Notes: a model not told the origin generated them from the sequence alone. Shown: positions 15,160-52,135, counted from the stretch's first letter. The stretch: DNA of 64,000 bases from a virus (IMGVR_UViG_2740892439_000009), one strand, 5' to 3'. Made by a program: numbers and translations.

Positions 15160-16098
15160 ATGACCGAACTTTGCCATACAGGACGCGGGCTGTCCGAAGA
15201 GTTTGATGAAGATTTCCAGAACAGACTGACGGCATATTTTTGTCGTGATCACGAGTTTCTTACTCGTGCGGGAGATCTGGTTGTGCCTAGCCAATTTGCC
15301 AATGCGGCCAATGCCATATTGGTTAATATGGTTTCGGGCTATTACCGTATGTACAAGAGCGCGCCTTCTTCATCTGCGATTCTGGATATGCTTAAGCGCG
15401 CGAAACGCGATAAGACCATCCGTGAGGAACTCTTCCCGGATGTTGTTGCTGCGTTTAAGCGCATCCTTGCAGAAAAATTGTCTGATACCTCGTACATGGT
15501 TGACCAGGTATCCACATTCGCAAAAAGTGTAGCGTTTGATGATGCTCTGATTAAAGCTGCTGAACTGAAAGAGAAGGGCGACTTTCAGGGGGCGATGGCA
15601 ATCATGGCCAAGGTTCAGCAGATAGGCTCGAACGAAGCGACCGGAATCTATGACTACTACACCTCCGCAAGTGAGCGATTGAAAGCGCGTGAATATGAGG
15701 CTTCAGAGGAGTATGTGCCAAACAGCATTACAACTGGACTCCCTCTGCTTGATAGATTGCTGTACCAAAAAGGCTGGGCGAAGCGTGAAATGGTGCTCTT
15801 CATGGGGTTCGCTAAATCCGGTAAATCGACCGCAATGGGTGAGTTTTCCATAAACGCAACACTTGCTGGCTACAATGTTCTGTATCTCTCGCTGGAGGTT
15901 CACACCACCATTTTATCCGACCGTTTTGATGCAAGATTGTCGGAGACAGAAATGTCCAGGCTGGTGGAACGGCGCGATGAGGTTCATCGTAAGTTGGCAG
16001 AGTTGGGAGCACGAAGGGGATTGGTAGTTTGTGGGTGGTTGAGCGTCCGTCAGGAAGTATGTCACCGGCAGATCTGGACCGTATGCTTAACAGCATGA
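15160..16098 (+). CDS. DnaB-like replicative helicase, N-terminal segment with Walker A (frame lost near 16020)
   Basis: ITTGLPLLDRLL..GFAKSGKST resembles the DnaB Walker A region; conserved start context AAAGGAAAGCACATG. Confidence 0.75.
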   Translation: MTELCHTGRGLSEEFDEDFQNRLTAYFCRDHEFLTRAGDLVVPSQFANAANAILVNMVSGYYRMYKSAPSSSAILDMLKRAKRDKTIREELFPDVVAAFKRILAEKLSDTSYMVDQVSTFAKSVAFDDALIKAAELKEKGDFQGAMAIMAKVQQIGSNEATGIYDYYTSASERLKAREYEASEEYVPNSITTGLPLLDRLLYQKGWAKREMVLFMGFAKSGKSTAMGEFSINATLAGYNVLYLSLEVHTTILSDRFDARLSETEMSRLVERRDEVHRKLAELGARRGLVVCGWLSVRQEVCHRQIWTVCLTA

Positions 16099-16499
16099 AA
16101 GCCAACGGCATGGTGCCTGATATGGTTGTTGTCGACTACGCAGATTTGATGCGTGCCAGTTATGACCTTCGTGATGATCGCGCCAACATTCGTAGTATCT
16201 ACACCGATTTACGTGCTCTTTATGACAAACATAACGTTGCTGGAATCACGGCATCGCAGACAAACCGTGAAGGTGGCGCGTCAGAAGTTGCCACAATGAT
16301 GCACGCCGCCGACAACATCGAAAAAGTACGTATTGCTGACCTGGTAATAACGATCAACAAAACCGAAGAAGAAGAAGCGAAAGGAGAGGCTCGTCTCTAC
16401 TTTGCTGGTTCACGTAACCAGCAGGGAGGGATCAGCATTCGTGTTAAACAAAACCTCGAACAAATGCGCTTCATTGAGCGAATCTTAGACGTTACCTAA
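16029..16499 (+). CDS. DnaB-like helicase C-terminal segment (-1 frame)
   Basis: DMVVVDYADLM and QTNREGG motifs typical of the DnaB C-terminal RecA-like domain. Confidence 0.7.
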   Translation: MWVVERPSGSMSPADLDRMLNSMKANGMVPDMVVVDYADLMRASYDLRDDRANIRSIYTDLRALYDKHNVAGITASQTNREGGASEVATMMHAADNIEKVRIADLVITINKTEEEEAKGEARLYFAGSRNQQGGISIRVKQNLEQMRFIERILDVT

Positions 16500-16504: not shown

Positions 16505-16530
16505 AAGCGTGGAGAACACCTCCACGCTTG
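16505..16530 (+). terminator. Terminator hairpin after the helicase
   Basis: Perfect 9-bp inverted repeat AGCGTGGAG..CTCCACGCT with a 5-nt loop. Confidence 0.5.
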
Positions 16531-16577
16531 ATTCATTGGTGAAACAACTTTTCTTTTGCCAAACCACAAAAGAAAAA

Positions 16578-17762
16578 CACATGAACCTTTATATTATATC
16601 AACATTTAGGTTGGTCACAATATTGCCTGTTAAAAGTGGAATTATCGTGAGCGAGCTGAAAGAGCTAATTGCCGAATTAGATTTTGAACAATGGTTGGAT
16701 ACTGAAGGTATCGTTTATCGACGTGGAGGCGTGAGTGCTCGCGGTCGTGAAGTGAATATCAAAGAGTGTCCGGTATGCGGCAGCTCCAACTGGAAGGTAT
16801 ATTTCAATCTGACCAGTGGCGTCGGCAAATGCTTCGCTGGTGATCATCCCGAAGAGATTCAGTTCAATAAGCTGGTCTTCCTCAAGCACTACAGCAGTAA
16901 ATCACGACGACAGTTCGAGGAATATGTGCAGAACGCTCTTCTTTCCCAGGGGTGGGCACCAAAGAAAGAAGAGCTAGTGCTTGCAAGCACAGTCGAGTTA
17001 GAGGGGCCAGTTGCACTCCCTCGTCATTACGAACTTCCTATAGATGGCCGTCTTCCAGACTATCTGGTTGAACGAAACATATCACCTGAAATGGCAAAGT
17101 ATTTTGACCTACGATACTGCGTCGAAGGCAAGCACGCTTATGTAGATCCGTATACAGATCAGGTTAAAGGACAGATATTCGATATGCGAATACTGATACC
17201 GATTTACGATCTGGATGGGGTAATGAAGACATTTCAGGGACGAGACATTACCGGTACAGCAGAACGCCGCTACCTCTTTCCTATGCAGCTTCCAGCTTCA
17301 GGTAAATTTCTCTACAACGGCCATAATGCAGTCGGCAAACAGACTGTAGTTGTCTGTGAGGGTGCGTTCGATGTTATGGGGGTCAAACGAGCTATTTTCG
17401 ACGAAGAAACATTACGTGATTACGTGGAGCCAATAGGAACGTTCGGGATGCATCTATCTGGCAACACCACTCAGGATGCAGAAGATCAGTTGGGCGCGTT
17501 CCTGACGCTCAAGGCGCGTGGATTACGTAATGTGATCATGATGTGGGATAGTGAAAAGCAAGCTATACGCAACACTATGGCCGCAGCCAGGCGACTGACC
17601 AGTATCGGTCTTAATGTCAAAGTTGCGTGTTTGGGCGAGGAAGGACTCGACCCGGGCGGTGCAACGCCAGAACAAATTATCAAAGCCTATTATCGGGCAA
17701 AACCGTATACCAAACAGTTGGAGTTGCAAAGCAAGGTTTTGGGCATTAAGGCTCTATCGTAA
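16578..17762 (+). CDS. DnaG-like DNA primase (zinc-binding and TOPRIM domains)
   Basis: CPVCGSS..KCFAGDH zinc motif; TOPRIM-like VVVCEGAFDVMGV and MMWDSEKQ; conserved start context AAAGAAAAACACATG. Confidence 0.7.
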   Translation, partial: HMNLYIISTFRLVTILPVKSGIIVSELKELIAELDFEQWLDTEGIVYRRGGVSARGREVNIKECPVCGSSNWKVYFNLTSGVGKCFAGDHPEEIQFNKLVFLKHYSSKSRRQFEEYVQNALLSQGWAPKKEELVLASTVELEGPVALPRHYELPIDGRLPDYLVERNISPEMAKYFDLRYCVEGKHAYVDPYTDQVKGQIFDMRILIPIYDLDGVMKTFQGRDITGTAERRYLFPMQLPASGKFLYNGHNAVGKQTVVVCEGAFDVMGVKRAIFDEETLRDYVEPIGTFGMHLSGNTTQDAEDQLGAFLTLKARGLRNVIMMWDSEKQAIRNTMAAARRLTSIGLNVKVACLGEEGLDPGGATPEQIIKAYYRAKPYTKQLELQSKVLGIKALS

Positions 17763-18675: not shown

Positions 18676-19158
18676 GTGGCGGTGGTTGTGAAAGCTGATT
18701 TGTCAAAAATCCCCTCTATTTCAGGAAATAATGGTTATTCACTTCGTTGTGAGGAAGTAAAGATAAACGGTGAGTCGGCATATTGCAGCTATTCCGTTTG
18801 CCAGCACACCATTCTTGCCTTCAAAGAAAACCGTCTTCCTCGAACTTCATTCCAGTCGTGCGCAACCGCTATCAAAGCAGGCAAATGCAAGGCGTTAAAA
18901 ATGATGGTTGAAGAGATTCGTAAAGGAGAATCTCTGTATTTCGAAGATATGACCGCACTCATTAAGGAGGTTGAAGAACGGAATAAACAAGCCAGAACTA
19001 TAAAACGAAAACGTGACAGTGTAACGATTAATAGCATGGTTAAGAAGAGCGCCATATCACAAACAGCGATCACTGACGTGTATGCGGCGTTGCTTGAAGA
19101 AACAACAAAAAAAACACATGAGCAAATCGATCAACATATGGAGGCAAAACAACAATGA
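18676..19158 (+). CDS. Hypothetical protein
   Basis: ORF from the track; start uncertain. Confidence 0.4.
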   Translation: MAVVVKADLSKIPSISGNNGYSLRCEEVKINGESAYCSYSVCQHTILAFKENRLPRTSFQSCATAIKAGKCKALKMMVEEIRKGESLYFEDMTALIKEVEERNKQARTIKRKRDSVTINSMVKKSAISQTAITDVYAALLEETTKKTHEQIDQHMEAKQQ

Positions 19159-27667: not shown

Positions 27668-29047
27668 ATGTCTAAAAAACGTTCCATCAAAGAGGTTCAG
27701 GACTTCCGTGACAGTGTAAAACGAGTAGTCGCTCTCCTTTCAGGTAAAAACATCCCTGTTGCAGAACGAGGGGACGACGCTTATGTACGCTATAACGATG
27801 ATGGAGAGCCAATTCTCGTAAACATCCCATCAATCCCGGATAACGCAACACCGGCATTGATGAATGCTGTGCGCGGATTTCTCGATCATGAGGTTGCTCA
27901 CATTTTGTTTACCGATATTCGTGTGTCCAACAAAATGAGAGAAAAAGGACGCGTTCCTTCCTGGTCGCTATGGAATGCCTTAGAAGACGTGTTCATCGAG
28001 CGAAAAATGGGGCAGGTCTTTAACGGAACAAGACGTAATCTGATGGCAACTCAGCGCCTTATAATCGAAAAAGTCTTTAAACCAAAGGCTTCAGAGGCTA
28101 TTGCTTATTGTGGCAAAGATCAGCGCGCGCTTTTTCTAAACTTCTTTCTCTGTCCGGTTGTAAGAGCCTGGGATGGCCAAGCACCGTTCGTAGATTTCAT
28201 GGATGAATATTGGCCTGTCATTGAGAAACCAATTTCATTATTAAAAGAACATGGTATCGATGTGGCCGTGCGTAACATGTCTTGCACCGAGGATTGTGTA
28301 AAGGTGGCTGCGACCATAGCTAAGATCCTCAAAGACACTGAAAGTGAAAGCAAAGGTAAGGAGTCAGCTCCGGGAAAAACTTCCGATCCTTCAGACGCTG
28401 ACCAGACGGATGCCTCTGGAGAAAACAATGAAGACAACGAAGATCATGAGACACCCTCATCGTTAGATAATCACAAATCTATCGAATCAGAATCACATAG
28501 TAAGCACAAACATGATAATAACGACAGCGATGATTCAGATAATTCTGAATCATCAGAAACAATATTCGATGATACAGAAAATGATAAAGAGGTATCAGAT
28601 TCTGATGCTTCTGATAACGCGGCGTCAGAATCATTAACCGCTGACCACGAAAAAAGAAAAACGACAGAAGACGGCTCTTCAGATATCCCAACTCCGTCAA
28701 AAATGAGTCTGGAAGAGGCTTTAGAGGAGCTGGATAGCATAGAAGATGAAGTCGGAGGCATGACAGAAGATGCTCTATCCGAAACGATTAAAAGCGAGTT
28801 AACAGAAAGCTCGAAAAGCGAATACAGGCCATACAATCGCTCATACGACTTCATCGGCTCGATTGATCAGGCAGAAGCCATATCAAACGGCTTATTAAAA
28901 CATTCTCCGATATTGATTTGGGAGGATATCCAATCAGCCGCTATCGCATCGTTCCTGAAGGCAACCAGCTCTTCGACAAATATATTGAAAAGCATCTTTC
29001 GTCAGGTGTTTCGTCGACGCTGGCAAAAGACCTGGAGCGAGCAATAG
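27668..29047 (+). CDS. CobT-like protein, N-terminal segment with acidic low-complexity linker (frame lost near 28915)
   Basis: Paired with a downstream vWA segment and a CobS-like AAA ATPase; highly acidic D/E/S-rich middle region. Confidence 0.5.
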   Translation: MSKKRSIKEVQDFRDSVKRVVALLSGKNIPVAERGDDAYVRYNDDGEPILVNIPSIPDNATPALMNAVRGFLDHEVAHILFTDIRVSNKMREKGRVPSWSLWNALEDVFIERKMGQVFNGTRRNLMATQRLIIEKVFKPKASEAIAYCGKDQRALFLNFFLCPVVRAWDGQAPFVDFMDEYWPVIEKPISLLKEHGIDVAVRNMSCTEDCVKVAATIAKILKDTESESKGKESAPGKTSDPSDADQTDASGENNEDNEDHETPSSLDNHKSIESESHSKHKHDNNDSDDSDNSESSETIFDDTENDKEVSDSDASDNAASESLTADHEKRKTTEDGSSDIPTPSKMSLEEALEELDSIEDEVGGMTEDALSETIKSELTESSKSEYRPYNRSYDFIGSIDQAEAISNGLLKHSPILIWEDIQSAAIASFLKATSSSTNILKSIFRQVFRRRWQKTWSEQ

Positions 29048-29775
29048 CAAGCAGAAACAGAGTTCAGTTTATACCGGGCCAGCGTCGGGGGCGCATTCAT
29101 GGTTCTAGTATCTACAGATTAGCAATGAATGATGATCGCGTGTTTCGTAAAAAAGAAGAATCTAAAGCCGTTAACGCCTGTGTTCAACAAGTGATTGATT
29201 TATCAGGTTCAATGAGTGGTATAACGATACAATTGGCTCTTGCAAGTGCATATACCATCGCCGATGCCCTTGATCGAATAAATGTTCCCAACATTATCAC
29301 CGGCTTCACTACATTTGGTAGTCATATGGCGGCAGGAGAACTTAAGGCTGTCAAGTATGAGTTCTCTCGCTTTGAATCTTTAATGCTACCTATCATCAAA
29401 AATTGGAATGAAAAGGTAAATTCTCGCGAAGTTCGCTCACGTATGGGGTGCGTAGGCTACACATTCCCACTTCTTAATAACGTGGATGGTGAAAGCATAG
29501 CCAGCCTTGCATCGTTATTTTCCGGTCGCATGGAGGACAGGAAGATCATGCTTGTTCTGAGTGACGGCGCGCCGTGGGCTGTTGGGAGAGGTTTTGACGC
29601 TCATTTGCGTTCGGTTGCGAAGCAAATTGAAACGCAGACTGACATTGATTTGATGGCAATTGGCATCATGACTGACGCACCGGAGAGATTTTACTCAAAT
29701 CATGCCCTGGTAACGAGCGTTGATAGTCTTGGTTCATCTGTAGTTACTGAACTATCTCGTATCATTTTGAAGTGA
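28918..29775 (+). CDS. von Willebrand factor A domain segment (CobT-like C-terminus, -1 frame)
   Basis: MIDAS motif VIDLSGSMSG. Confidence 0.65.
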   Translation: MGGYPISRYRIVPEGNQLFDKYIEKHLSSGVSSTLAKDLERAIASRNRVQFIPGQRRGRIHGSSIYRLAMNDDRVFRKKEESKAVNACVQQVIDLSGSMSGITIQLALASAYTIADALDRINVPNIITGFTTFGSHMAAGELKAVKYEFSRFESLMLPIIKNWNEKVNSREVRSRMGCVGYTFPLLNNVDGESIASLASLFSGRMEDRKIMLVLSDGAPWAVGRGFDAHLRSVAKQIETQTDIDLMAIGIMTDAPERFYSNHALVTSVDSLGSSVVTELSRIILK

Positions 29776-31285: not shown

Positions 31286-34200
31286 ATGAAGGCACTGATG
31301 GTTCGAACTGACTTCTCACTTGGGGAGTCGGCTTTAAAAGCAGAAAACGCGGTGAAGATTGCCAGAGAAGCTGGCTACACCGCTGTAATTTCAGCAGATA
31401 GCATGAATATTGCGAGCGTTATTCCACTACAACGTGCCGCTGGTGACGACATGGCGGTTATTTGTGGTGTGAAACTAAACATTGTTGATGATCCCACATA
31501 CGAGCACCGGGTTAAACTTGCTAAAGAATCTATGAGATGTATGGAATCATTAGAGCGGGGACGTAACTACTCGTTTACCGCTCTAATTAAAAATGAGCAA
31601 GGATATCGCGACATCTGCGAACTAATGACGGTGGCCAACACACGAGAACAGTTCTACTTTGTACCGCGTCTCTCGCTCGAACAGTTGGTTTCTACATATG
31701 CCAAAGGCAACATCATCCTGCTCACTTCCGACATCGGTAGCGTGTTCCAACGCAACGATTTTGCAAAAATCATAAGCTCACTGATTACAGCGGGCGGGAA
31801 AGACAACTTCTATAGCGTGGTTTATCCGCACCCTACCCCATTCTACGACCAGATTAACGTCCGGGCGATGAAAGTCGCCAGCGCATTGAAAATAGAGCCA
31901 GTGGCGTTCTATCCCGCTTATTACGAATCGATCGACGATGCAGACATTAAAGACATTGCGCACATGGTTACGAACAACATAAAAATCGACCAGCCGCATC
32001 GTCTGCGTATCCCCCACCAGCGAGATAACGCCATCAATGGTCGTCGCCATCTCCTTGAGGCGCTTAAAGCCTTCTCCGTTCGCATGGATGTGCCGGTAAC
32101 AGCTGCAATGGCCTCAACAACGCAGGACTCCATTATCGATGCCTGCACATGGCGCTGGCATGAATTGCCACCAGCACTGCCCAAGATGGCAGACGACGAA
32201 CCTGCAACGCTGATGAAACTGGCTGTTGCAGGGCTGCGTAAACGTCTTACCACAAAAGAGTTTGGATACACACCACCTGCTTCTGAGAACAGGGTTTATG
32301 TTGAGCGGCTAAAGTACGAAATGGACACGCTGACTCGCCTGGGATTCTGTGGTTACTTCCTGATGGTACGCGATCTGATGAATCACAGCCGTGAAACTGG
32401 CATTCCTGTCGGGCCTGGTCGTGGTTCCTCTGCCGGTTCTCTGGTGGCGTGGTGCATAGGCATAACCAACGTCGACCCAATCCGTCACGGTCTTCTGTTT
32501 GAGCGTTTCATCAACCCTGAGCGTCTCGACTTGCCGGATGCGGACTTGGACTTCAGCCAGGCACGTCGCCATGAGGTGATCGAGTATCTGAATGAACGCT
32601 ACGGCGAAGATTACGTTGCAGGCATTCCGAACTTCACCTATCTGGGCGCGGCATCTGCGCTGCGTGACACTGCACGTATTTACGGTGTCGATGCTGCGGA
32701 TATGGCGGTATCCAAAGAGTTCAAGAATATGGAGGACGACAGCCTGTCTCTGGAAGAGCTGCGCGAGCAACTGGCCAGCCTGGACAAATACGCCACGAAA
32801 AACCCGGAAGCGTTCAAAGCGGCGTGTAAGCTGCAAAGCCTGATGCGTGGTTTTGGTCGTCACGCTGCGGGGATGATCGTCGCTGGCGTTCCATTAGTAG
32901 AGCGCACGCCCGTCGAGCTGCGTGGCAATGCTCGATGTATTGCGTTCGATAAACGTTACTGCGAGGCGATGGGGCTGATTAAGTTGGACGTTCTCGGTCT
33001 GGCAACACTCGATCTTCTGGATAGCGCGAAACGCTACATCAAAGAGAGTACCGGTGAATACATCAATCTCGACGCTATCCCACTGGACGATCGCAAGGTT
33101 CTGGATGGGTTCGCTGCAGGGTACACGCAGGGCGTATTCCAGCTGGAGTCCGGCCCCATGCGTAAGCTGCTTAAAGATCTGGGCGGTGGCATCGAGCCAA
33201 TGAGTTTCAAAACCGTTGTCGCAACTACCGCCCTCTTCCGACCGGGACCGATTCAATCCGGCATGTTGGATGACTATGTTTCCGTTGCGAAAGGATTTAT
33301 GACGCCTACATCACTACATCCTGTCTTGGATGAACTGACCTCTGAAACAAATGGAGTGATTCTCTATCAGGAACAAACGATGAACGCAACAAGGCTTCTT
33401 GCTGGTTTCACAATGGCCGAGGCGGATGGTGTGCGTTCAGCAATCGGTAAGAAGAACATGGAAAAGATGAGGAGCATGGGTGAGAAATTTGTCATTCAGG
33501 CTCAAGCTGGGTGGATCGACGTAGAGCTTGAAAATGGCGCAATACAACGGATTCATCGCGCAGAACATTTTAAATGCGAGGACGGTACTCTGAGGACAGT
33601 TGAAGAGGCGTTGGAGCATGGAGTGAAGCTGCCAATGCCAGTTGTGCGCGTTACAACGTCACATCCAGGTCTGTCTGAGACGAAGGCAAAAGAGATATGG
33701 ACTGCATTTGAGAAAAACGGAGCCTATCAGTTCAATAAATCACACTCCGTTGCTTATTCTTTAATCAGTTATCAGTCTATGTGGCTAAAGACGCACTACC
33801 CTGCTGAGTTCTTCGCAGCTGCGCTCACCATTCTGGGCGAGGATAAGCATCAGGGGCTGGTGAAGGATGCGCTGACCTATGGCATTCGCGTATTGCCACC
33901 AGACGTTAATGTGTCATCTAACCGAATTGAGATCCGCACACTCGAAGACGGCAGTCAGGCACTGTATGCGCCATTCTCTGCTGTGAAAGGCTGTTCTGAA
34001 AATGGTTGTCAGGCAATTATGCGTGCGCGTGAGAAAGTTGGTGGCAAATTCGAGTCAGTGGCACAATTCGATGAAGCGGTCGAGAAGCGTGCATGTAACA
34101 GTCGTGTACGCGAGTCGCTTCATAAAGTAGGGGCTTTTGCGTCAATTGAGCCAGGCAGTCTGCCAGCAACTGATCCTGAACGACTGCGCGACCAGGCTGA

Positions 34201-34804
34201 GCTGATGGGCAATCTCATCATTGACGCTGTTAAAGCATCACGTCCGTTCGAAATGAATCCTAAGCGTTCTGCCGAAATCAACGTACTCATGACACGTATG
34301 GCGGCTGAAATGGGCTTGGGTGAGGAGTTGATACGCCCGACTATTGGTATTAAACCCAAAATCATGATCATTCTGGACAATGCGAACGGCAATGACGCTC
34401 GTACCGGCTACTTCATGGAGAACGGATACGACGACTTTAAGGCAAAACTACTGACAGTTGGAGATCTGCGCATGGGCGATCTTTATGTCACGGGTGTTTG
34501 TAAGAAGGTTAAGGACAAAGAGAAAGACTATACCAAAGACGAGATAGGCCAGTTCACAGACTTTATGCGGGAAGAAATTAATCTTGTACGACCAACCTAC
34601 ATTTTGACGTGTGGTAGTCGTTCAACCGCACTATTTAACAATAAGAGTAAACCATCAGATCTGATTGGTCGTAAGGAGTACTTCCCAGAGCTTGATGCAA
34701 CCGTCTTCTACGGATTTAACCCGAATATCCTGTACTTCCGACCGGAAGAAGGAGAGCGACTGGAGGCCATTCTGGCTGATATCGCGGAGACAATAAATAA
34801 GTAA
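31286..34804 (+). CDS. dnaE: DNA polymerase III alpha subunit (DnaE-type, family C) with extra internal and C-terminal segments
   Basis: PHP N-terminus; core motifs GFCGYFLMVRDL, GPGRGSSAGSLVAWCIGIT, ATTALFRPGP, AYQFNKSHSVAYSL; 1172 aa. Confidence 0.9.
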   Translation: MKALMVRTDFSLGESALKAENAVKIAREAGYTAVISADSMNIASVIPLQRAAGDDMAVICGVKLNIVDDPTYEHRVKLAKESMRCMESLERGRNYSFTALIKNEQGYRDICELMTVANTREQFYFVPRLSLEQLVSTYAKGNIILLTSDIGSVFQRNDFAKIISSLITAGGKDNFYSVVYPHPTPFYDQINVRAMKVASALKIEPVAFYPAYYESIDDADIKDIAHMVTNNIKIDQPHRLRIPHQRDNAINGRRHLLEALKAFSVRMDVPVTAAMASTTQDSIIDACTWRWHELPPALPKMADDEPATLMKLAVAGLRKRLTTKEFGYTPPASENRVYVERLKYEMDTLTRLGFCGYFLMVRDLMNHSRETGIPVGPGRGSSAGSLVAWCIGITNVDPIRHGLLFERFINPERLDLPDADLDFSQARRHEVIEYLNERYGEDYVAGIPNFTYLGAASALRDTARIYGVDAADMAVSKEFKNMEDDSLSLEELREQLASLDKYATKNPEAFKAACKLQSLMRGFGRHAAGMIVAGVPLVERTPVELRGNARCIAFDKRYCEAMGLIKLDVLGLATLDLLDSAKRYIKESTGEYINLDAIPLDDRKVLDGFAAGYTQGVFQLESGPMRKLLKDLGGGIEPMSFKTVVATTALFRPGPIQSGMLDDYVSVAKGFMTPTSLHPVLDELTSETNGVILYQEQTMNATRLLAGFTMAEADGVRSAIGKKNMEKMRSMGEKFVIQAQAGWIDVELENGAIQRIHRAEHFKCEDGTLRTVEEALEHGVKLPMPVVRVTTSHPGLSETKAKEIWTAFEKNGAYQFNKSHSVAYSLISYQSMWLKTHYPAEFFAAALTILGEDKHQGLVKDALTYGIRVLPPDVNVSSNRIEIRTLEDGSQALYAPFSAVKGCSENGCQAIMRAREKVGGKFESVAQFDEAVEKRACNSRVRESLHKVGAFASIEPGSLPATDPERLRDQAELMGNLIIDAVKASRPFEMNPKRSAEINVLMTRMAAEMGLGEELIRPTIGIKPKIMIILDNANGNDARTGYFMENGYDDFKAKLLTVGDLRMGDLYVTGVCKKVKDKEKDYTKDEIGQFTDFMREEINLVRPTYILTCGSRSTALFNNKSKPSDLIGRKEYFPELDATVFYGFNPNILYFRPEEGERLEAILADIAETINK

Positions 34805-37304: not shown

Positions 37305-38333
37305 ATGTCTAAGACATTACTTGATTTGCTTAACAAAACTCGTGAAGACATTGCCGCCAAACGTGGCAACAACGTTGATCTGACTCGCTTAAAAGACGGC
37401 GTCAACTATATCCGCATCTTCCCGAATAAAGACGACCCAAACGGTAAGTTCTTCCAGACTTTCGGTATGCACTACGTTAAGTATCAGAACGAGGAAGGTA
37501 AAGAAGCAACCAACGCTTATATTTGTGAGCAACATACTCACGGTCGCGCTTGTCAGCTATGCGAAATGGTGATGGAAGGTCGCGCTCGTCACAAGGGTAA
37601 CAAAGCAATGGAAGAACGCATCGGTCAAATGCGTGCCACTCCTCGCTACCTGGTCAACGGCATTCTTTCTGCTCGTGAGGATTTCGCAGATGCTGAGAAA
37701 TGCCAGTTAATCGAGCTGCCGTCTACTGTATTCGATGATATCTGCAAAGCAATCACCGAAGACATCGCTGATGATATCGGCAATCCACTGAGCAAAGAGG
37801 AAGGCTACGCATTCCTGATTAAACGTACTGGCTCTGGTCGCGATACCAAATATGACGTCTCGCCTAAGCGTAAAGTCTACAAAGGCGATATCGAAGATAA
37901 ATTCTGGAACACCCAGCATGATCTGATCGCATACGCAAATCAGGCTGATGAAACTCGTCTTCTGTCGACAGTTCGCACTATGGGTCGTCTGATTGGCATC
38001 GCTGCACCAACTGCCGCAGCATCTGCACCAGCAATTTCCTCAACCGCGAAAACATCGGCTGCGGCACTACCTGGATTTGGCTCTGTCACTGGTCATACAG
38101 AAGGAGCGACGGCTGTAGCAACCGCGCACACACCGGCTTCTGAACCAACCAGTCTGGTTGATGAAGAAATCCTCCGTGCCGTTGAAACTGAATTTAAACC
38201 AGAGGCAAGTTCCGCTGCCGTTGCCGTATCAGTCAAAGAGTCTGAAGCAGTCGCAGCGACATCTGTAGCAACCGCATCTGCGACGGAAGATGAAGGTCTG
38301 GATGACCTACTGAGAGAACTGGACTCTCTGTAA
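37305..38333 (+). CDS. gp32-like single-stranded DNA-binding protein
   Basis: N-terminal IRIFPNKDDPNGKFF, Cys/His cluster CEQHTHGRACQLCE, acidic C-terminal tail DDLLRELDSL; layout as in T4 gp32. Confidence 0.7.
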   Translation: MSKTLLDLLNKTREDIAAKRGNNVDLTRLKDGVNYIRIFPNKDDPNGKFFQTFGMHYVKYQNEEGKEATNAYICEQHTHGRACQLCEMVMEGRARHKGNKAMEERIGQMRATPRYLVNGILSAREDFADAEKCQLIELPSTVFDDICKAITEDIADDIGNPLSKEEGYAFLIKRTGSGRDTKYDVSPKRKVYKGDIEDKFWNTQHDLIAYANQADETRLLSTVRTMGRLIGIAAPTAAASAPAISSTAKTSAAALPGFGSVTGHTEGATAVATAHTPASEPTSLVDEEILRAVETEFKPEASSAAVAVSVKESEAVAATSVATASATEDEGLDDLLRELDSL

Positions 38334-38452: not shown

Positions 38453-39337
38453 TTGCACAACGGCGAAATGGAAGTACAGGCTGCTTTCGGCTTTGTTAAG
38501 AACGTCCGTCGTTATGCCTCCATCCTCCATGCCCGACCTATGATTCTTTGGGATGGATTTAGTGACAAGCGTCGCGACTTTTACCCGGACTACAAAGCAA
38601 ATCGCGACGACGATCCTGATATGAAAAAGATGAAGGAAGGCTTTGCTATCCAGAAGCCATACATCCTCAAAATGATGACCGCGCTTGGAGTTACCCAACT
38701 CATTGCAAAAGATGCAGAAGCGGATGATCTGGCCGGGCTGCTGGTATCCCGCATGGCACCGCAGCCAACCGTTGAACACATCTATCTGTTAACAGGCGAT
38801 AGCGACTGGCTTCAGTTAGTTCGCGAAAACGTAAGCTGGGTAAGCCTGCGCGAAGACGCCAAAAACAAGCAGGTTAATTTTGAGCAATTTGCGGAGCTGA
38901 CAGGATTCGCTACTCCTCGCGCATTTTTGGAAGCAAAAGCATTACAAGGCGATAAATCGGACAACATTAGCGGTGTTGGTGGCATTGGTGCTGGCGGTGC
39001 GAAAGAGCTGCTGCATGAATGGGGAAGTGTCGCAACGATGGTACGCGGCATCAACGACGGCTCAATCGTGGTTGACAAAGGACGCCATAAGACCGCCTTC
39101 AACAAACTAGCGAAGAATGCCTTCAACGAGAAAACAGGCTGTCGAATGCTCGAAGCGTTCAAGAGAAACATCACGCTAATGAACCTGATTGAGACGAAGT
39201 TTCCGCCTACCGAAATCGAAACAATCAAAGGCAATCGTGACGTGAAAGCATTCGAGCAACTGTGCTACGAGCTGAATTTCCGTTCGTTCCTTGAAGACCT
39301 TGAAGTGTTTGTTCTTCCATTCGAAAGGTATTGCTAA
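38453..39337 (+). CDS. 5'-3' exonuclease / flap endonuclease (FEN); N-terminal about 20 codons lie in another frame starting at GTG about 38394
   Basis: Matches the Pol I 5'-exonuclease domain pattern; the upstream frame encodes NYLFVDGNSW (FEN N-terminal motif) with AAGGAG SD. Confidence 0.8.
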   Translation: MHNGEMEVQAAFGFVKNVRRYASILHARPMILWDGFSDKRRDFYPDYKANRDDDPDMKKMKEGFAIQKPYILKMMTALGVTQLIAKDAEADDLAGLLVSRMAPQPTVEHIYLLTGDSDWLQLVRENVSWVSLREDAKNKQVNFEQFAELTGFATPRAFLEAKALQGDKSDNISGVGGIGAGGAKELLHEWGSVATMVRGINDGSIVVDKGRHKTAFNKLAKNAFNEKTGCRMLEAFKRNITLMNLIETKFPPTEIETIKGNRDVKAFEQLCYELNFRSFLEDLEVFVLPFERYC

Positions 39338-39605: not shown

Positions 39606-40679
39606 ATGGCAAAAGGAAAATCCGCACTGGCACTTGCTCTGAAAAAGAAAATCGGTAGCAACGACGAAATTCAGAAAGTAACTCATTGGATTGACACAGG
39701 CTTTCCTCCGTTAAACAAAGCTATTTCTGGTCGTTACGATGGCGGCTTCCCATGTGGTCGTATCGTCGAAGTATTCGGTCCTCCAAGCGCGGGGAAAACG
39801 TTCCTTGCAACAGCAGCGATGATCTCCGCTCAAAAACAAGATGGTCTGGCGGTATTCCTCGATCATGAAAACAGTTTTGACGTTGGCCTGGCTGTAGCCA
39901 ATGGCCTGAACGCAGATGAGGATGACGGTCAGTGGGTATACAAGCAGCCAGATACCTTCGAAGACTCTGTAGAGTTGATCGGCACAATACTTAAATTGGT
40001 TCGTGATGAAGAGCTTATCCCCGAATCAGCACCTATCTGTATCGTGGCTGACTCTCTTGCGTCTATGGTTCCGAACTCCAAAGCCGAGAAGTTCGAAAAG
40101 ATGGCTGAAGGCACTGCCAAAGACAAAGATCAGCTAAACATGAACGACAATACGGCACTGGCTCGTGCGACGAGTGCGAACTTCCCTACTCTGGCTTTGT
40201 GGGCACGCAAATACAACGCCTGCATCATCTTCTTGAATCAGGTTCGCACAAAAATCGGTGTAATGTTTGGCGACCCTACTACGTCGCCAGGTGGAGATTC
40301 ACCGAAGTTCTACGCTTCTGTACGTATCCGTCTTGGTGCATCGGTGATGAAGGATGGTAAAGAGAAGATCGGCCAGGACGTAGGCGCAGAATGCATCAAA
40401 AACAAAGTTGCACCACCGTATGGCAAATGCACCTGGAAATTCTACTTCGATCCTACTCGTGGCCTCGACGTTATCGAATCGCTCGTCGAGTACATGCTGG
40501 AAGAAGGATACCTGCCAAAGAACGCCAGCGGGCGAGTTGAAATTGGTGACAAGAAATACACAAAATCGCAGATCGTCGAGATGTATCGGGAGAAGCCACT
40601 GGCTGAAATCATTGCGGCTTTGCAGGCAATCGACGACCGAAGAGCAAAAGACAACCCCACCGAGTCAGTAGAAGAGTAA
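39606..40679 (+). CDS. RecA/UvsX-like recombinase
   Basis: Walker A GPPSAGKT, RecA-like FLNQVR loop region; AAGGAG SD. Confidence 0.85.
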   Translation: MAKGKSALALALKKKIGSNDEIQKVTHWIDTGFPPLNKAISGRYDGGFPCGRIVEVFGPPSAGKTFLATAAMISAQKQDGLAVFLDHENSFDVGLAVANGLNADEDDGQWVYKQPDTFEDSVELIGTILKLVRDEELIPESAPICIVADSLASMVPNSKAEKFEKMAEGTAKDKDQLNMNDNTALARATSANFPTLALWARKYNACIIFLNQVRTKIGVMFGDPTTSPGGDSPKFYASVRIRLGASVMKDGKEKIGQDVGAECIKNKVAPPYGKCTWKFYFDPTRGLDVIESLVEYMLEEGYLPKNASGRVEIGDKKYTKSQIVEMYREKPLAEIIAALQAIDDRRAKDNPTESVEE

Positions 40680-46309: not shown

Positions 46310-47395
46310 ATGACTTTGCCATACGGCGTCATTTCTGACTGCCACTACCACAAATGGGATGCGTTCTCCACGACGAACGCTGAGGGGCTTAACTCCAGAC
46401 TTGAAATACAGTTGGAAGCAACGAAAGAAGCAGCCATCGCCATGAAGAAGGCCGGTTGTAAGTACATGTTGGTTGCCGGTGATACATTTCACGTCCGAGG
46501 AACTGTGTCCCCTTCTGTTTTGCATTACGTAACTGAAACGTACAAGTGGATTATCAACGAGCTTGATCTGACAGTAGTAATGCTGGCCGGTAATCACGAT
46601 CTTGAAACCAACGATTCAGTATATAGCGCCAACGCAGCAGCATCGCTGAGTTCTATCGGCGTGGTAATCGTATGTGGTAAGCGCCCACACTCAATAAAAA
46701 TTGGTGATGTGACTGTCCACCTGATTAGCTGGCGTAACAATCATGCGGAGCTTATCAGCGATCTGAAAACATTACGTAAGAGCGTAGAAGGTGATAATCA
46801 TGACGTTGTTATCCATACATCCATTAACAAAGCCATTCCAACAATGCCTGACGTCGGTATCGATGCGCAGGAGTTAAAGGATATCGGCTTTCGTCTCGTG
46901 CTTAGTGGGCATTACCACAACCACAAAGAGGTCATTCCTGGAGTTATCAGTGTCGGTGCACTGACTCATCAAAATTGGGGAGATGTTGGATCTCTGGCTG
47001 GCTACATGATCGTAAACCCGGACGGCAGTTTCAGTCACTACGAAACCAGTGCGCCTAAATTCATTAACCTGGAAGATGATGTTGCTGATGACCAAATTCG
47101 CGGCAACTACGTGCGTTTCCGCGCCGTAATTGAGAACGATGAAGAAGGCATTAAGTACCAGAACATCCTCAAAACAATGGGTGCAAAAGGTGTCGTGTGC
47201 AACTTCATCCGTAAGTCATCAATGATGGAAGGGACAGCCAGCACAACTGAAACCAGCAAAATCGATAGCCTGGGAGAGTCGGTATCTGCTTATTGCAAGA
47301 TTGTCCACGATACTGACGGCGGATTTGATCTGAGCAAATTGGATATTTTGTGTCAGGAAATCCTCACCGAAGCGGAGAGTTCGGAGGCTGTGTGA
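46310..47395 (+). CDS. SbcD/Mre11-like nuclease (T4 gp47-like)
   Basis: Metallophosphoesterase motifs SDCHY, GDTFH, GNHD, GHYH; conserved start context. Confidence 0.8.
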   Translation: MTLPYGVISDCHYHKWDAFSTTNAEGLNSRLEIQLEATKEAAIAMKKAGCKYMLVAGDTFHVRGTVSPSVLHYVTETYKWIINELDLTVVMLAGNHDLETNDSVYSANAAASLSSIGVVIVCGKRPHSIKIGDVTVHLISWRNNHAELISDLKTLRKSVEGDNHDVVIHTSINKAIPTMPDVGIDAQELKDIGFRLVLSGHYHNHKEVIPGVISVGALTHQNWGDVGSLAGYMIVNPDGSFSHYETSAPKFINLEDDVADDQIRGNYVRFRAVIENDEEGIKYQNILKTMGAKGVVCNFIRKSSMMEGTASTTETSKIDSLGESVSAYCKIVHDTDGGFDLSKLDILCQEILTEAESSEAV

Positions 47396-47624
47396 AGCAA
47401 AGTCGTTATGGGAGCTTTCGAGACTTTGCCATCACGATGAAAAGACTTGAACGAGGCCAGACGGTGATGTTTCACAAGCCCTACCCGCCACAAGGAAATC
47501 CCGTAGCGTTTTATCTTGGAAGGTTAACCAGAAAAGGCGTATTGAGGCGCAGATCCTTCCCGGCGCATACGGAGTTCAGATTGAAAGAAGGCCAAAAGCT
47601 AACACACGGTATCAGAGGTGTTAT

Positions 47625-49541
47625 ATGAAGTTTTTAAAGCTCCAGGTTGAGAATTTTATGGCTATCGCCAGCGCGGAGGTCGAGTTAGATCAGCGTGGTT
47701 TAGTGCTTATTCAGGGTGTTAATAGTGATGATAGTTCCGCATCAAGTAATGGCTCTGGAAAGTCAACGCTAATGAATAGCCTGATGTGGTGTCTTTATGG
47801 CGAAACAGCTCATGGTGTGAAGGGTGACGATGTGTTGTCTACCGACCATGAAAAGAACTGTCGTGTTGCAGTAACCATCGAGGATGAAGGCAAGAGATAT
47901 GCGATCATTCGTCACCGTAAACACAAAGAGTTCAAAAATCGTCTTATCGTTCGTGGTGAAGATGGCGATATGACGAAAGGCAAAGATGCGCTGACGCAGG
48001 AGTTCGTCGAGCGTCTGATCGGTGCATCTAAAGAGGTTTTCATGGCTTCCATCTATGCGAGCCAAGAAGCTATGCCAGATCTACCTGGAATGTCCGACAA
48101 AAACCTCAAAACCATCGTAGAAGAAGCCGCTGGCGTTGACAGACTGACACGCGCCTACGCTATTGCTCGTGAACGAGCTAACGCAGCTGCCGCACGCATG
48201 GACGTGGTTAAAACCAAATTGGAGTCGACAATCTCGACCATTGAGGCAACACAGTCAGAAATTGAGTCCGCGAAAGCCTCCTCTGAATCATGGGAACAAG
48301 AGCGTTCTAAACGTTATGACGATGCCCTGGCTGGGCTGGCAAGTGCCGAAGTTGAGTTAACGGAAGTTGAACTTGAGATCCGCACTCTTCCCGAACAGAT
48401 CTGTGATACCGAGAAGGCAATCGAAAGTGAGCGCAAAAAGTTAGCCTCAAAAGAAGAACATAACGCCAAGTTGCTCAAAGTTCGTGGTGCGATAACTGAT
48501 ATTCGGGCAAGCATCAAAGCTACAGAAAATAGTCAGGCTGATGCAATGAACCGCGCGCGTAATTTTAAGACCAAAGCAGAAGAGGTTGGTACTAAAGTGG
48601 GATCACCATGCCCTACTTGTGGCAAAGCCTACTGCGAAGAAGATCTATCAACGGTGAAGGAGAATTTCATTGAACAAGCACGTCAGGAAATTGGTCAGGC
48701 GAAGACACTTGCAGAGGCAATGGCTAAACACAAAACGAATCTTGAGAAAGCGTTAAGCATTGAGTCTGCCCTTGTTAAAACGACACCTGATGTAACGGCT
48801 ATCATTGCCCGGATTGAAGAGCTTACGAAACAACTCTCATCTTTGCGTCATCGTGAGAAGGAGGTTGTTGCTATTGAGTCTCTTGTGACTCGTGCTCGTA
48901 CTGAGGTCGATCGTATATCAAAAGAGATTAATCCGTTTATTGCTCTTATCGCCAGACACGAAGATAACCTGGTATCCAGTAAGTCTACCTTCAAGTCCTT
49001 AAAAGATGAGTTGAAGGCTATTCAGGAACAAACGTTGCTATTGGAAAAAGCTCGTCAGGTCTACTCTCCTGCCGGGGTGCGTTCTCATATTTTGACGTCT
49101 GTTACGCCTTTCCTGAATACACGCACTGCCGAGTATCTCAATACGTTGTCTGACGGGAATATTACTGCTGAGTGGTCGACGATGGATGTCACTAAAAAAG
49201 GTGAGTATCGCGACAAATTCAACATTAGTGTGCAGAAGAAAGGTTCAAGTAAGTCGTTCCAAACCCTCTCTGGTGGTGAGAAGCGGAAGGTTCGCATTGC
49301 GTGTTCTTTGGCATTGCAGGATCTGGTTAGTAACCGGGCGAGTAAAAACATCGATTTGTTTATCGGCGACGAAATTGACGATGCACTCGATACAGCCGGT
49401 CTTGAACGCCTCATGGGTATTCTGGAGTCCAAAGCTCGCGAGCGAGGTACTGTGCTGATTATCTCCCATAAAGAGATGAAGTCATGGTTCCGGGAAACTA
49501 TTACGCTGGAAGTTAAAGAGGGGCGCAGCTATGTCGTTTAA
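47625..49541 (+). CDS. SbcC/Rad50-like ATPase (T4 gp46-like)
   Basis: Walker A GSGKST, zinc hook CPTCGK, ABC signature LSGGEKRKV, Walker B LFIGDEID. Confidence 0.85.
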   Translation: MKFLKLQVENFMAIASAEVELDQRGLVLIQGVNSDDSSASSNGSGKSTLMNSLMWCLYGETAHGVKGDDVLSTDHEKNCRVAVTIEDEGKRYAIIRHRKHKEFKNRLIVRGEDGDMTKGKDALTQEFVERLIGASKEVFMASIYASQEAMPDLPGMSDKNLKTIVEEAAGVDRLTRAYAIARERANAAAARMDVVKTKLESTISTIEATQSEIESAKASSESWEQERSKRYDDALAGLASAEVELTEVELEIRTLPEQICDTEKAIESERKKLASKEEHNAKLLKVRGAITDIRASIKATENSQADAMNRARNFKTKAEEVGTKVGSPCPTCGKAYCEEDLSTVKENFIEQARQEIGQAKTLAEAMAKHKTNLEKALSIESALVKTTPDVTAIIARIEELTKQLSSLRHREKEVVAIESLVTRARTEVDRISKEINPFIALIARHEDNLVSSKSTFKSLKDELKAIQEQTLLLEKARQVYSPAGVRSHILTSVTPFLNTRTAEYLNTLSDGNITAEWSTMDVTKKGEYRDKFNISVQKKGSSKSFQTLSGGEKRKVRIACSLALQDLVSNRASKNIDLFIGDEIDDALDTAGLERLMGILESKARERGTVLIISHKEMKSWFRETITLEVKEGRSYVV

Positions 49542-50926: not shown

Positions 50927-52135
50927 ATGATAAGCATCGTAAAACGTAACGGCCAAACAGAGCCGTTATCCGAAGAAAAATACAACCGCGTCGTAATGTA
51001 TGGCGTAGAAGGCATTCGTGGCGTAAGCGCATCCGCTGTAGCAATGGGAGCTGTGGCCAGCATTTTTGATGGGATGACCACCAGCCAGTTGCATGAGGCT
51101 TTGGTTAAATCTGCCGCTGATTTGATCTCACCAGAAGCACCAAATTACTCACAGGTGGCTGCCCGCCTGAACATTTTTAAAATCCGCAAAGATGCCTTCG
51201 GTCGTTACGACTATCCGAACTTCTACCAACACATTGTCAAGAACGTTAACAAGGGCGTTTATGACAAGGATTTGCTGACACATTATTCATTTGAAGAGAT
51301 CGAAGAACTCGGCAATTACATTAAGCCTAAACGTGACGATCTTTTTGGCTATGCGGCTACGGTGCAATTGCAAAGCAAATACCTCGTTCAAAACCGTGTT
51401 ACTGGTGAGATTCATGAGGGGCCGCAACATATCTATATGCTGGTGGGCATGTGTCTGTTCCAGAATTGGGAAGACGACTGCGCTGGCAAAACACGTATGG
51501 AGATGGTCAAAGGTTTCTATGACGTTACAAGTACGTTCAAACTGTCTCTGCCCACACCAATCATGGCCGGCGTCCGTACTCCAACCCGTCAGTTCTCCAG
51601 TTGTGTGCTGATTGAGTCTGGCGATAGTCTGAAAGGGATTAGTGCAGCTTCAGCCGCAATTATCGACTACGTTTCACGTCGTGCTGGAATTGGTATTGGT
51701 TTTGGCCGTATCCGTGCGCTGGGCAGCGAGATCCGCAATGGTGAAGCCACCCATACCGGAGTTATTCCATTCCTGAAGCATTTCCAGACTGCTGTTAAAT
51801 CTTGCTCGCAAGGTGGTGTCCGTGGTGGCGCAGCAACAGCGTTTTACCCGATCTGGCATCTTGAAGTTGAAAGTCTGCTGGTGGTGAAAAATAACCGTGG
51901 TATCGATGAAAACCGCGTTCGCCATCTTGATTACGGCGTCATGAGTAACCGTCTGATGTACCGTCGACTCGTCAGAAGCGAGAACATCACTCTGTTCAGC
52001 CGCATGATGTGCCTGATATGTACGAAGCCTTCTTCACAGACCAGGATCTGTTTGAAAAGCTGTACCATAAATACGAAGCCGATGATTCAATTCGCAAGAA
52101 GTCAGTACCTGCCATTGAGCTGTTCTCATCTCTGA
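50927..52135 (+). CDS. nrdA: Ribonucleotide reductase class Ia alpha subunit NrdA, N-terminal segment (frame lost near 51990)
   Basis: High similarity in pattern to E. coli NrdA through ENITLFS, then nonsense. Confidence 0.85.
   Translation: MISIVKRNGQTEPLSEEKYNRVVMYGVEGIRGVSASAVAMGAVASIFDGMTTSQLHEALVKSAADLISPEAPNYSQVAARLNIFKIRKDAFGRYDYPNFYQHIVKNVNKGVYDKDLLTHYSFEEIEELGNYIKPKRDDLFGYAATVQLQSKYLVQNRVTGEIHEGPQHIYMLVGMCLFQNWEDDCAGKTRMEMVKGFYDVTSTFKLSLPTPIMAGVRTPTRQFSSCVLIESGDSLKGISAASAAIIDYVSRRAGIGIGFGRIRALGSEIRNGEATHTGVIPFLKHFQTAVKSCSQGGVRGGAATAFYPIWHLEVESLLVVKNNRGIDENRVRHLDYGVMSNRLMYRRLVRSENITLFSRMMCLICTKPSSQTRICLKSCTINTKPMIQFARSQYLPLSCSHL

Follow-up and report, generated by a model that had tools for sequence, protein, structure and literature searches.

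A probable split-intein relic and a glycosylase-derived C-terminal domain in the DnaE-type polymerase of a phage-plasmid

How does a replicative polymerase of the DnaE type come to carry two segments that standard domain models leave unassigned? The question is raised by the viral sequence IMGVR_UViG_2740892439_000009, a phage-plasmid stretch of 64,000 nucleotides (hereafter the window), in which Pfam leaves residues 741-865 and 956-1172 of the encoded polymerase without a match. A preliminary description of this DNA had noted an insertion of about 50 amino acids (aa) before the motif AYQFNKSHS and an unassignable C-terminal domain. The explanation that we favor as a whole, with a probability of roughly 0.7, is that the protein is a DnaE with a C-terminus derived from a uracil-DNA glycosylase (UDG), that the insertion is the relic of a dead split intein, that such relics belong to a mobile cassette, and that the window carries a fused allele.

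The insertion in the fingers of the polymerase

In part of the relatives the polymerase is encoded as two proteins, an N-half and a C-half, and the names "tail" and "head" used below refer to the ends of these halves. The segments concerned are:

31286-34804, plus strand: dnaE-type replicative polymerase gene, contiguous ("fused") allele with an ATG start, 1172 aa (Pfam, NCBIfam DnaE; phrog_405 over the full length)
33005-33505, plus strand: first part of the fingers, residues 574-740 (PF17657, 7e-43)
33509-33622, plus strand: putative Hint-relic tail, residues 742-779, GWIDVELENGAIQRIHRAEHFKCEDGTLRTVEEALEHG (alignment to the C-terminal tails of N-half proteins in split relatives)
33623-33664, plus strand: putative Hint-relic head, residues 780-793, VKLPMPVVRVTTSH (nucleotide and head alignments to the starts of C-halves)
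33665-33880, plus strand: second part of the fingers, residues 794-865, with AYQFNKSHS at residues 813-821, nucleotides (nt) 33722-33748 (aligned to Taq 791-860)

In the alignment to the Taq Pol III alpha subunit (2HPI), residues 741 and 794 of the window polymerase face the adjacent Taq residues 790 and 791, and the insertion is therefore a gapless segment of 52 aa (residues 742-793, nt 33509-33664). It ends 20 aa ahead of A813-YQFNKSHS and is missing from the DnaEs of sister phages. The preliminary description was right about the existence and size of the insertion and slightly off in placing it around residues 720-780. Neither of the two extra segments corresponds, in the alignment to Taq alpha, to the ordinary linker regions of bacterial DnaE homologues.

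When a profile of the tail was compared with 177,635 distinct PDB sequences, the only genuine matches were DnaE split inteins: 7QIL at E=9e-4, and 4LX3, 4QFQ, 4KL5, 2KEQ and 5OL6 at 0.04-0.08, over intein residues ~63-98. Designed TIM barrels in the same list were dismissed as an artefact of their four-fold repeat. With a profile of tail plus head, the alignment extended to the last tail residue, which faces intein residue ~102, the natural end of the N-terminal intein fragment (IntN); within DnaE split inteins, the part most alike is the last third of the N-fragment. A local comparison with the Npu and Ssp intein sequences had given 16.6 and 10.6 bits (not more than 4.8 bits in 1000 shuffles) and was superseded by the PDB searches.

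The AlphaFold model of residues 730-812 (pLDDT 96.3) folds the tail into a beta-hairpin (strands 743-748 and 753-757), two bridges and a helix (772-778), and the head into an 8-residue strand (786-793). The tail begins with G-[WFY] right after the fingers helix, its invariant residues are G742, G751, H757, C764, D766, G767, R770, T771 and A775, and after the head comes [DPNE]-G-[LM], with no conserved nucleophile or Asn. The module (tail plus head) lacks the residues of splicing: residue 1 is not Cys/Ser, a TxxH in register is absent, neither a terminal Asn nor a Cys/Ser/Thr at position +1 is present, and in the HMMER alignment the conserved His757 faces the Thr of TxxH, not the block-B His. 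At 52 aa in fused and ~57 aa in total in split alleles, it is also smaller than the minimal splicing domain of ~125 aa. A functional mini-intein was ruled out on grounds of size and the missing nucleophiles.

Taken together, the matches to DnaE split inteins, the small beta-sheet fold of the model, which looks like a fragment of the Hint fold, and the absence of splicing residues lead us to read the module as a vestigial split intein. The insertion is most likely the fused remnant of such an element, dead for splicing, and the module probably represents the lobe that the last part of IntN builds together with the first part of the C-terminal intein fragment (IntC). In the Npu DnaE intein this very lobe reportedly mediates association of the fragments, in the "capture and collapse" process that Shah and colleagues are said to have described in 2013.

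Several observations weigh against this interpretation. The sequence similarity is marginal (E ~1e-3 over ~36-41 residues) and effectively limited to one intein family; Pfam at E<=10 gave no Hint or intein signal with isolated tails or with the module of the window. The Foldseek E-values of the module are only 0.015-0.08, and AlphaFold may have been steered towards an intein-like fold by the same sequence similarity, so that the structural support is not fully independent. Appending the head to the tail profile brought no gain in score against single-chain inteins or IntC, and homology between the head and IntC has only its position and the structure match in its favor. No full-size intein turned up at that same point of integration among the 370 collected proteins, whose inteins occupy RK|C, FE|S and FN[KR]|C, and the module is placed 20-27 residues upstream of where cyanobacterial DnaE inteins classically reside.

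The marginal E-values would also suit an ordinary, lineage-specific small beta domain (for instance a nucleic-acid-binding one of Sm-, Tudor- or SH3-like type) whose resemblance to inteins is convergent, as would the absence of a Pfam match and the presence of Hfq and Tudor domains lower down the Foldseek list. We regard such convergence as improbable.

Split, fused and module-free alleles

A word-indexed search with the C-terminal 219 aa of the polymerase reached close relatives only, and an exhaustive HMMER search with residues 954-1172 over 1.84 billion representatives was used instead. It found only 140 clusters, all of them DnaE-like C-termini, and returned a tight class of proteins of ~385-420 aa that start, at the end of the insertion, with "MKI.......GL.E..A..[IL]W...E....Y.FNKSH". 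On the contigs that encode these short proteins, the polymerase gene is physically broken inside the module.

Three loci illustrate the arrangement. In L089 a 787-aa N-half is followed by a NUMOD4-HNH_3 endonuclease of 231 aa and a C-half of 389 aa (the cluster of such C-halves, P0146, has 1459 member sequences); in L090 the 790-aa N-half and the 386-aa C-half are separated by a 70-nt spacer; in Acinetobacter elements a 63-aa NUMOD4 stub lies between halves of 785 and 421 aa. The N-half ends, before its stop codon, in a tail of 41-48 aa (G[WFY]..V.L.DG.....H......C.DG..RT..EA....A[DE]I..F), and the C-half has its own ATG and a head of 11-13 aa (MKI...G). Both are conserved down to ~40% overall identity.

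Among the module-bearing loci that were fetched, 32 are contiguous and 32 split. The gap of the split loci holds a NUMOD4-HNH_3-HTH gene (719 nt, 12 loci), a different NUMOD3/HNH_3 gene (779 nt, 8 loci), a decayed stub (229 nt, 3 loci) or no gene at all (65-72 nt, 9 loci); these states (two homing endonuclease genes (HEGs), stub and empty) are stages of the homing-endonuclease life cycle. The layout known as a "fractured gene", with host halves that carry intein parts and a free-standing HEG between them, is found in L089, L056 and 18 more loci. The window itself, being a fused derivative, does not have it.

Endonucleases of the HNH/NUMOD type are often encoded by introns in phage polymerase genes, and true inteins do occur in relatives of this polymerase. 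Both facts would fit removal of the module or of the intervening DNA by splicing (as a group I intron or a functional mini-intein), which would leave a mature polymerase without the module. We consider this extremely unlikely: Rfam at gathering thresholds revealed no intron family in the gaps of five split loci, a gap of 65-72 nt leaves no room for an intron, the module keeps the reading frame, shows conservation of its protein sequence and is under purifying selection, and its ~57 aa contain neither a position-1 Cys/Ser nor a terminal Asn followed by a +1 nucleophile.

In the preferred reading, tail and head would be the remains of a split intein that now act as a non-covalent clasp, joining the halves of the polymerase by strand complementation and without splicing. 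The unit of tail, stop codon, optional HEG, start codon and head would be a mobile cassette that homes into dnaE alleles lacking the module.

The distribution of alleles was examined on a neighbor-joining tree built from the C-terminal region that they share. Split alleles and module-free ones are intermingled on this tree, and sister pairs of the two kinds are 88-90% identical downstream of the module. In one pair, P0165 (module-free) and P0167 (split), the identity is 90% over 364 aa downstream, and the ~25 residues adjoining the junction are far more diverged, a pattern that co-conversion during homing would give. Since split and module-free states alternate among polymerases that are 88-90% identical, the unit behaves as a mobile gene-fracturing cassette.

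In the enterobacterial clade all representatives are split save three fused lineages (window/SSU5, P0145/P0147 and P0008); a fourth fused variant, P0060, belongs to a distant lineage. The three lineages have different junctions, each missing another piece of the split allele, which supports repeated split-to-fused events; the allele of the window would be one of at least three independent in-frame re-fusions. At 33623 it reads GTG-AAG-CTG (V-K-L), opposite the ATG-AAA-ATT (M-K-I) with which split C-half genes begin, and the last ~10 tail codons, the stop codon and the spacer of the split alleles are missing. Deletion of these pieces would have joined the halves in frame and turned the ATG into the GTG of Val780, leaving the relic as an internal, still-folded and less constrained mini-domain. 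In fused alleles the ratio of non-synonymous to synonymous substitution rates (dN/dS) of the relic is 0.067, against 0.016-0.019 for the polymerase core and the UDG-derived domain; the relic is still under constraint, about four-fold less than its surroundings, although these values are rough, with dS near saturation.

The change could instead have run from fused to split, if a contiguous module-bearing allele were ancestral and a HEG had later entered a tolerant surface loop. Insertion of a free-standing HEG can reportedly leave a gene in pieces (as in nrdA/mobE of phage Aeh1), the GTG codon of Val780 is a possible start codon, and HEGs are present in 20 of the 32 split loci. Against this, split alleles share the same tail end (A[DE]I..F) and MKI start from Acinetobacter to Klebsiella, as well as in numerous lineages known from metagenomes, fused alleles occupy shallow tips only, with at least three junctions that each miss a different piece, and the break in the gene matches the natural IntN/IntC split point. 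We therefore regard a fused ancestor as unlikely.

The account of a mobile cassette has weaknesses of its own. The tree was drawn without support values, dS approaches saturation, and some alleles could be misclassified owing to fragments among the proteins; non-covalent assembly of the halves and homing by the HEGs are inferred. We would give about even odds to the wider proposal that the tail-stop-(HEG)-start-head unit constitutes a class of selfish element in its own right, made harmless by a dead split-intein lobe that glues the halves together non-covalently, without RNA or protein splicing. Such an element would be common in the replicative polymerases of phage-plasmids from clinical Enterobacteriaceae and Acinetobacter, and it could disappear either by precise removal (which yields module-free alleles) or by in-frame fusion (leaving the 52-aa relic).

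Other selfish elements were encountered in the same family. The metagenomic relatives P0264/P0266 have a genuine split intein in the fingers at FE|SGGMRKLL (IntC ...GIVVHN|SGMRKLL), and these polymerases seem to consist of three pieces, with one junction trans-spliced and the other held by the relic. Their precomputed Intein_splicing matches come not from the tail but from a separate, genuine split-intein C-fragment at the N-termini of the proteins. A LAGLIDADG intein is present at RK|C...HN|CMGKK in P0043, and inteins at FN[KR]|C occur in further relatives, P0142 among them. RecA contains an intein in Acinetobacter elements (L091, 10550-12748) and probably in phage PhiR41_1, whose RecA-like protein has 780 aa. 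Selfish elements are thus concentrated in the replication genes of this phage family.

In annotation, the C-half falls into phrog_4335 and phrog_13175 ("unknown function"), and P0001, P0149 and P0175 are named "uracil-DNA glycosylase (family protein)" or "helix-hairpin-helix domain-containing protein" by NCBI.

The polymerase core, its C-terminal domain and the replication genes

The remaining parts of the polymerase, and the gene for its presumed proofreading partner, are:

31301-31810, plus strand: PHP domain, residues 6-175 (PF02811, 7e-13)
32210-32998, plus strand: palm/thumb, residues 309-571, with LPD418AD420LDF and KLD568VLGL (PF07733, DNA_pol3_alpha, 3.6e-73)
33881-34150, plus strand: helix-hairpin-helix, (HhH)2, or beta-binding-type domain, residues 866-955 (PF14579, HHH_6, 3e-16)
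34151-34261, plus strand: conserved linker, residues 956-992, with a motif at nt 34193-34207 (column counts 66-79 of 80)
34262-34801, plus strand: domain derived from a family-4 UDG, residues 993-1172 (TIGR00758, 4ZBX profile, AlphaFold2/Foldseek)
58734-59288, plus strand: separate gene for a DnaQ/epsilon-like 3'-5' exonuclease, 184 aa (PF00929, RNase_T, 2e-22; phrog_192 "DNA polymerase exonuclease subunit", 2e-51)

With PHP, palm/thumb, fingers and (HhH)2 in order and the catalytic motifs present, the polymerase belongs to the C family (DnaE type), as had been proposed. Residues D418, D420 and D568 are invariant in the family and align to MPDIDTDF and KMDFLGL of Taq alpha; Y814, F816, N817, S819, H820 and S821 of the fingers motif are likewise invariant. 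The NCBIfam superfamily model TIGR00594 scored 622 bits (cut-off 434), and the DnaE1-, DnaE2- and PolC-type equivalog models all remained below their cut-offs (for example NF004226, 671 vs 1002 bits). Homology to DnaE ends at about residue 953 of the alignment to 2HPI, and the C-terminal OB fold and tau-binding domain of E. coli-type DnaE1 are absent.

The canonical N-terminal metal-binding motif of PHP domains is rich in His (HxH...S..DG). In the window the first PHP motif (nt 31286-31330) reads MVRTDFSLGES, of which T8, F10, S11, G13, E14 and S15 are invariant in the family; the loss of the His ligands suggests that this PHP domain is inactive and may offer the DnaQ-like exonuclease a place to dock, as in E. 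coli. Proofreading would then be provided in trans, by a DnaQ-like protein bound to a PHP domain without a metal site. The preliminary description was correct in placing the exonuclease in a gene of its own at 58734-59288.

Between the (HhH)2 and C-terminal domains lies the near-invariant motif R966...D969-Q970-x-E972-L973-[ML]-[PG]-G-L (residues 964-977 are PERLRDQAELMGNL), modeled by AlphaFold as a helix with a pLDDT of only about 70. Its position is close to that of the internal clamp-binding QADMF of E. coli alpha, and it could be a candidate motif for binding of the beta clamp or for docking of domains.

In place of the OB and tau-binding C-terminus of other polymerases of this type, there is a domain derived from family-4 UDGs. 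TIGR00758 (family-4 UDG, NCBIfam) matches residues 1053-1168 weakly (5e-7; 29.6 bits against a cut-off of 125). A profile of the whole family of these domains recovers solved family-4 UDGs at 5.7e-21 (4ZBX) and 3.6e-19 (1UI0), and UdgX at ~1e-12; the preliminary description had named UDG among the profiles to be compared, aptly as it turned out. With the AlphaFold2 model (pLDDT 92.9), Foldseek retrieved 4ZBX at E=3.5e-12 (TM 0.80) as well as 1L9G, 1VK2 and 1UI0. In addition, residues 1016-1162 give a match (5.7e-6) to phrog_17, which is a family of phage DNA polymerases, and the family-4/UdgX entries of PDB bear the name "Phage SPO1 DNA polymerase-related protein".

The active-site positions were mapped onto 4ZBX, with residues counted in 80 relatives. 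Motif A, canonically G-E-[AG]-P-G and x-D-x-P-[NTS] in the family consensus, is L-D1031-N-A-N in the window: Asp1031 (Asp in 78 of the 80) occupies the place of the Glu of GEAPG, and the Pro is replaced by Ala. Motif B, canonically H-P-[SA], is N1145-P-N, with Asn in 68 relatives and His in none. The position of the uracil-reading Asn, after the invariant Y1067-x-T1069, is held by Gly, Thr, Ser or Ala. The four Cys ligands of the 4Fe-4S cluster are replaced in the window by E1008, L1011, K1074 and F1090; three of the cysteines are retained in roughly half of the relatives, and no relative has a Cys at the third ligand (position 1074). The domain of the window has, in sum, neither the canonical motif A, nor the His of motif B, nor any of the four cysteines. 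What is strongly conserved is a remodeled pocket of Asp1031, Asn1145, Tyr1067, Thr1069, Lys1073 and Lys1076.

A Cys within motif A (position 1032) was observed in 28 of the 80 family members and may represent an alternative ligand or a different cluster geometry.

Because the catalytic and recognition residues have been replaced, we favor a role in DNA binding or base sensing: judged by its residues, the domain is most likely a module of this kind in place of the OB domain, and not a canonical enzyme of uracil excision. The motif-A Asp and motif-B Asn could, however, still allow glycosylase chemistry. The domain would in that case be an active glycosylase, for uracil or another base, coupling base excision to the replication fork. 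In favor of this are a purifying selection as strong as that on the polymerase core (dN/dS about 0.019), the retention of polar residues at the active site (Asp1031 and Asn1145, counted above), the three Fe-S cysteines kept by about half of the family, and the recruitment of UDGs by viral replisomes (vaccinia D4, cited in PMC4889955). The loss of the motif-B His, of the uracil-reading Asn, of the Fe-S ligands in the window and of the motif-A Pro, as well as a score far below the NCBIfam family cut-off, argue against it, and we hold glycosylase activity to be a serious alternative, though the less probable one.

The domain is not new, since it was published for the same polymerase in 2014: the relevant parts of Timinskas et al. 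(2014, NAR 42:1393, PMC3919608) describe, for the Yersinia and Salmonella copies, a DnaE in which the OB and C-terminal domains are replaced by a UDG. A UDG domain is also listed in the GenBank note of RHEph10, and truncated copies bear the automatic NCBI name "uracil-DNA glycosylase".

The polymerase gene shares 99.6% identity, without indels, with the dnaE on E. coli plasmid pRHB36-C16_2 (CP057127.1) and 86.7% with gp052 of Salmonella phage SSU5; it is also present on 781 PLSDB plasmids (of Klebsiella, Escherichia, Enterobacter, Yersinia and Salmonella). These identities and carriers identify the window as a phage-plasmid of the SSU5/pHCM2/pMT1 type. Its other replication genes are:

15160-16499, plus strand: DnaB-like replicative helicase, in two open reading frames (ORFs) in the window, 15160-16098 and 16029-16499 (phrog_19, profile 150-420 and 435-580)
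16509-17762, plus strand: DnaG-type primase (Pfam DNAG_N, Toprim_2; phrog_47, 3.6e-63)
19155-20477: ATP-dependent ligase (Pfam/PHROGs)
37305-38333, plus strand: gp32-like single-stranded DNA-binding protein (SSB; PF08804, 1.7e-66)
38453-39337, plus strand: 5'-3' flap endonuclease (FEN; PF02739, PF01367), its 5' end disturbed by a 1-nt deletion at 38423
39606-40679, plus strand: RecA/UvsX-type recombinase, allele without intein (PF00154, 2.2e-42)
46310-49541, plus strand: SbcD (46310-47395) and SbcC (47625-49541), analogues of gp47 and gp46 (Pfam Metallophos, AAA_23, SMC_N)

Pfam and PHROGs further identify a RuvC-like resolvase, a ribonucleotide reductase (RNR), ThyA and a dihydrofolate reductase. 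Of the neighbors that had been called T4-style, the gp32-like SSB, the RecA/UvsX-type recombinase, the SbcCD pair and FEN are indeed present, whereas helicase and primase are bacterial, DnaB- and DnaG-like. The accessory genes are largely of phage type. A T4-type replisome (PolB gp43, clamp gp45, loader gp44/62, helicase gp41 and primase gp61) is not what the window encodes, its polymerase being of family C; the SSB, the recombinase and the SbcCD pair are the only components in common with it.

The order CobS-DnaE-FEN-RecA recurs in phages of roughly 110 kb, namely Pseudomonas phage nickie, Rhizobium phages RHEph10 and B1VFA, and Stenotrophomonas phage BUCTxx99. Neither a clamp nor a clamp loader is annotated in the complete relative PhiR41_1. 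As the gene set and this order recur across 781 plasmids and several phage genera, the mosaic is the standard, and hence typical, replication module of a large group of phages and phage-plasmids. It had been put forward instead that the combination is unusual for a phage-plasmid and that both extra segments of the polymerase are previously unknown domains, in keeping with their lack of a Pfam assignment. This is very improbable, given the conservation of the module set in these plasmids and phages and the UDG domain already set out in the relevant parts of PMC3919608. The claim of novelty survives only for the insertion, which is undescribed in the searchable literature but is read here as a vestigial split intein and not as a polymerase domain.

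Relative to the 99%-identical CP057127.1, the window has single-base deletions at 16010, 28878, 38423, 41051 and 43362. The first breaks the helicase gene into the two ORFs listed above; a CobT-like gene is likewise broken by a single-base deletion, into 27668-29047 and 28918-29775. Two of the deletions fall in CCTGG (Dcm) contexts, which suggests that they are long-read base-calling errors and that these genes may not be real pseudogenes. The large subunit of RNR is present as two overlapping ORFs (50927-53241), its counterpart in PhiR41_1 being a single ORF of 772 aa. The thymidylate synthase (55581-56711; 376 aa) has two Pfam-matching stretches and exceeds the usual length by ~100 aa.

Implications and comparison with known systems

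If the proposed origin of the insertion is true, it would represent a late stage in the life of an intein, at which splicing chemistry has been lost after the intein was split and its endonuclease became free-standing, leaving a minimal Hint lobe as a clasp between proteins, and even this clasp may afterwards be enclosed in the host protein, where it forms a mini-domain. The family would also offer a natural experiment, in which an essential polymerase seemingly works as one, two or, in some lineages, three chains among near-identical elements. In practice it sets a trap for annotation: thousands of clinical plasmids hold split polymerase genes that are easily taken for pseudogenes or repair enzymes. 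Should tail and head associate without chemistry, their ~46 and ~12 residues might be used as a compact split-protein tag, and a UDG-like domain in place of OB and tau-binding modules may point to an alternative design of C-family replicases. These considerations are relevant to inteins, homing elements and the replication of phage-plasmids.

The UDG-like domain and the module set of replication genes were already known. The splicing-dead, intein-derived cassette and its fused scar appear not to have been described in the searchable literature: within an incomplete library, where absence of evidence is all that a negative can mean, no paper on the relic or on split alleles of this polymerase was found, and nothing specific emerged on intein remnants or on inteins of pHCM2 and pMT1.

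The best matches of the module, in sequence and structure, are the cyanobacterial split DnaE intein (Npu/Ssp; 4KL5, 2KEQ, 4QFQ, 1ZDE) and the halophilic 7QIL. They have the host protein in common with it, and the gene is interrupted at the same place in the Hint fold (the IntN end, ~residue 102). The integration points differ, the module lying 20-27 residues upstream of Y|CFNKSH, and ~60 N-terminal and ~24 C-terminal intein residues are missing, hence no trans-splicing is to be expected. Furthermore, the halves of the polymerase are adjacent here, in contrast to the separate loci of the cyanobacterial DnaE halves.

A second parallel is the nrdA gene of Aeromonas phage Aeh1, in which, according to what Friedrich and colleagues are said to have found in 2007, the free-standing HEG mobE lies between the two halves and the products reassemble non-covalently. 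To our knowledge, no intein-derived docking module is involved there. In the polymerase family, by contrast, a conserved, putative Hint relic bridges the break.

With respect to the C-terminal domain, vaccinia D4 (a UDG that acts as a processivity subunit of the polymerase) and the SPO1-type PolA likewise couple a UDG-fold module to a viral replicative polymerase. The polymerases belong to different families (B in the vaccinia D4 system and A in the SPO1 type, compared with C in the window), and vaccinia D4, unlike the fused UDG-like domain, is a separate and catalytically active family-1 enzyme. The closest case is the DnaE of Yersinia pestis pMT1 and Salmonella enterica pHCM2, which, in the relevant parts of PMC3919608, is of the same family, combines a PHP-Pol3-(HhH)2 core with an archaeal-type family 4 (PF03167) UDG, and is likewise an additional, plasmid-borne polymerase. 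The passages of that paper that concern splitting, UDG, phages or plasmids make no mention of a Hint relic, split alleles, phage context or the status of catalytic residues.

The layout of the split loci is that of the "fractured genes" found among phage-like replication genes (Dassa, London, Stoddard and Pietrokovski 2009, NAR 37:2560, PMC2677866), which include three DnaE loci at non-cyanobacterial integration points: an N-half with intein-N, a free-standing HEG, and intein-C with the C-half. The split inteins of fractured genes are, however, of full length (N parts of 88-105 aa), with six Hint motifs and five catalytic residues. The corresponding parts of the split polymerase have 41-48 and 11-13 aa and no catalytic residue, and the halves therefore cannot be ligated. 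The HEGs are of the HNH/NUMOD type in the split polymerase loci and GIY-YIG or Vsr-like in fractured genes. Unlike fractured genes, finally, the polymerase family described here comprises fused, HEG-less and module-free alleles side by side.

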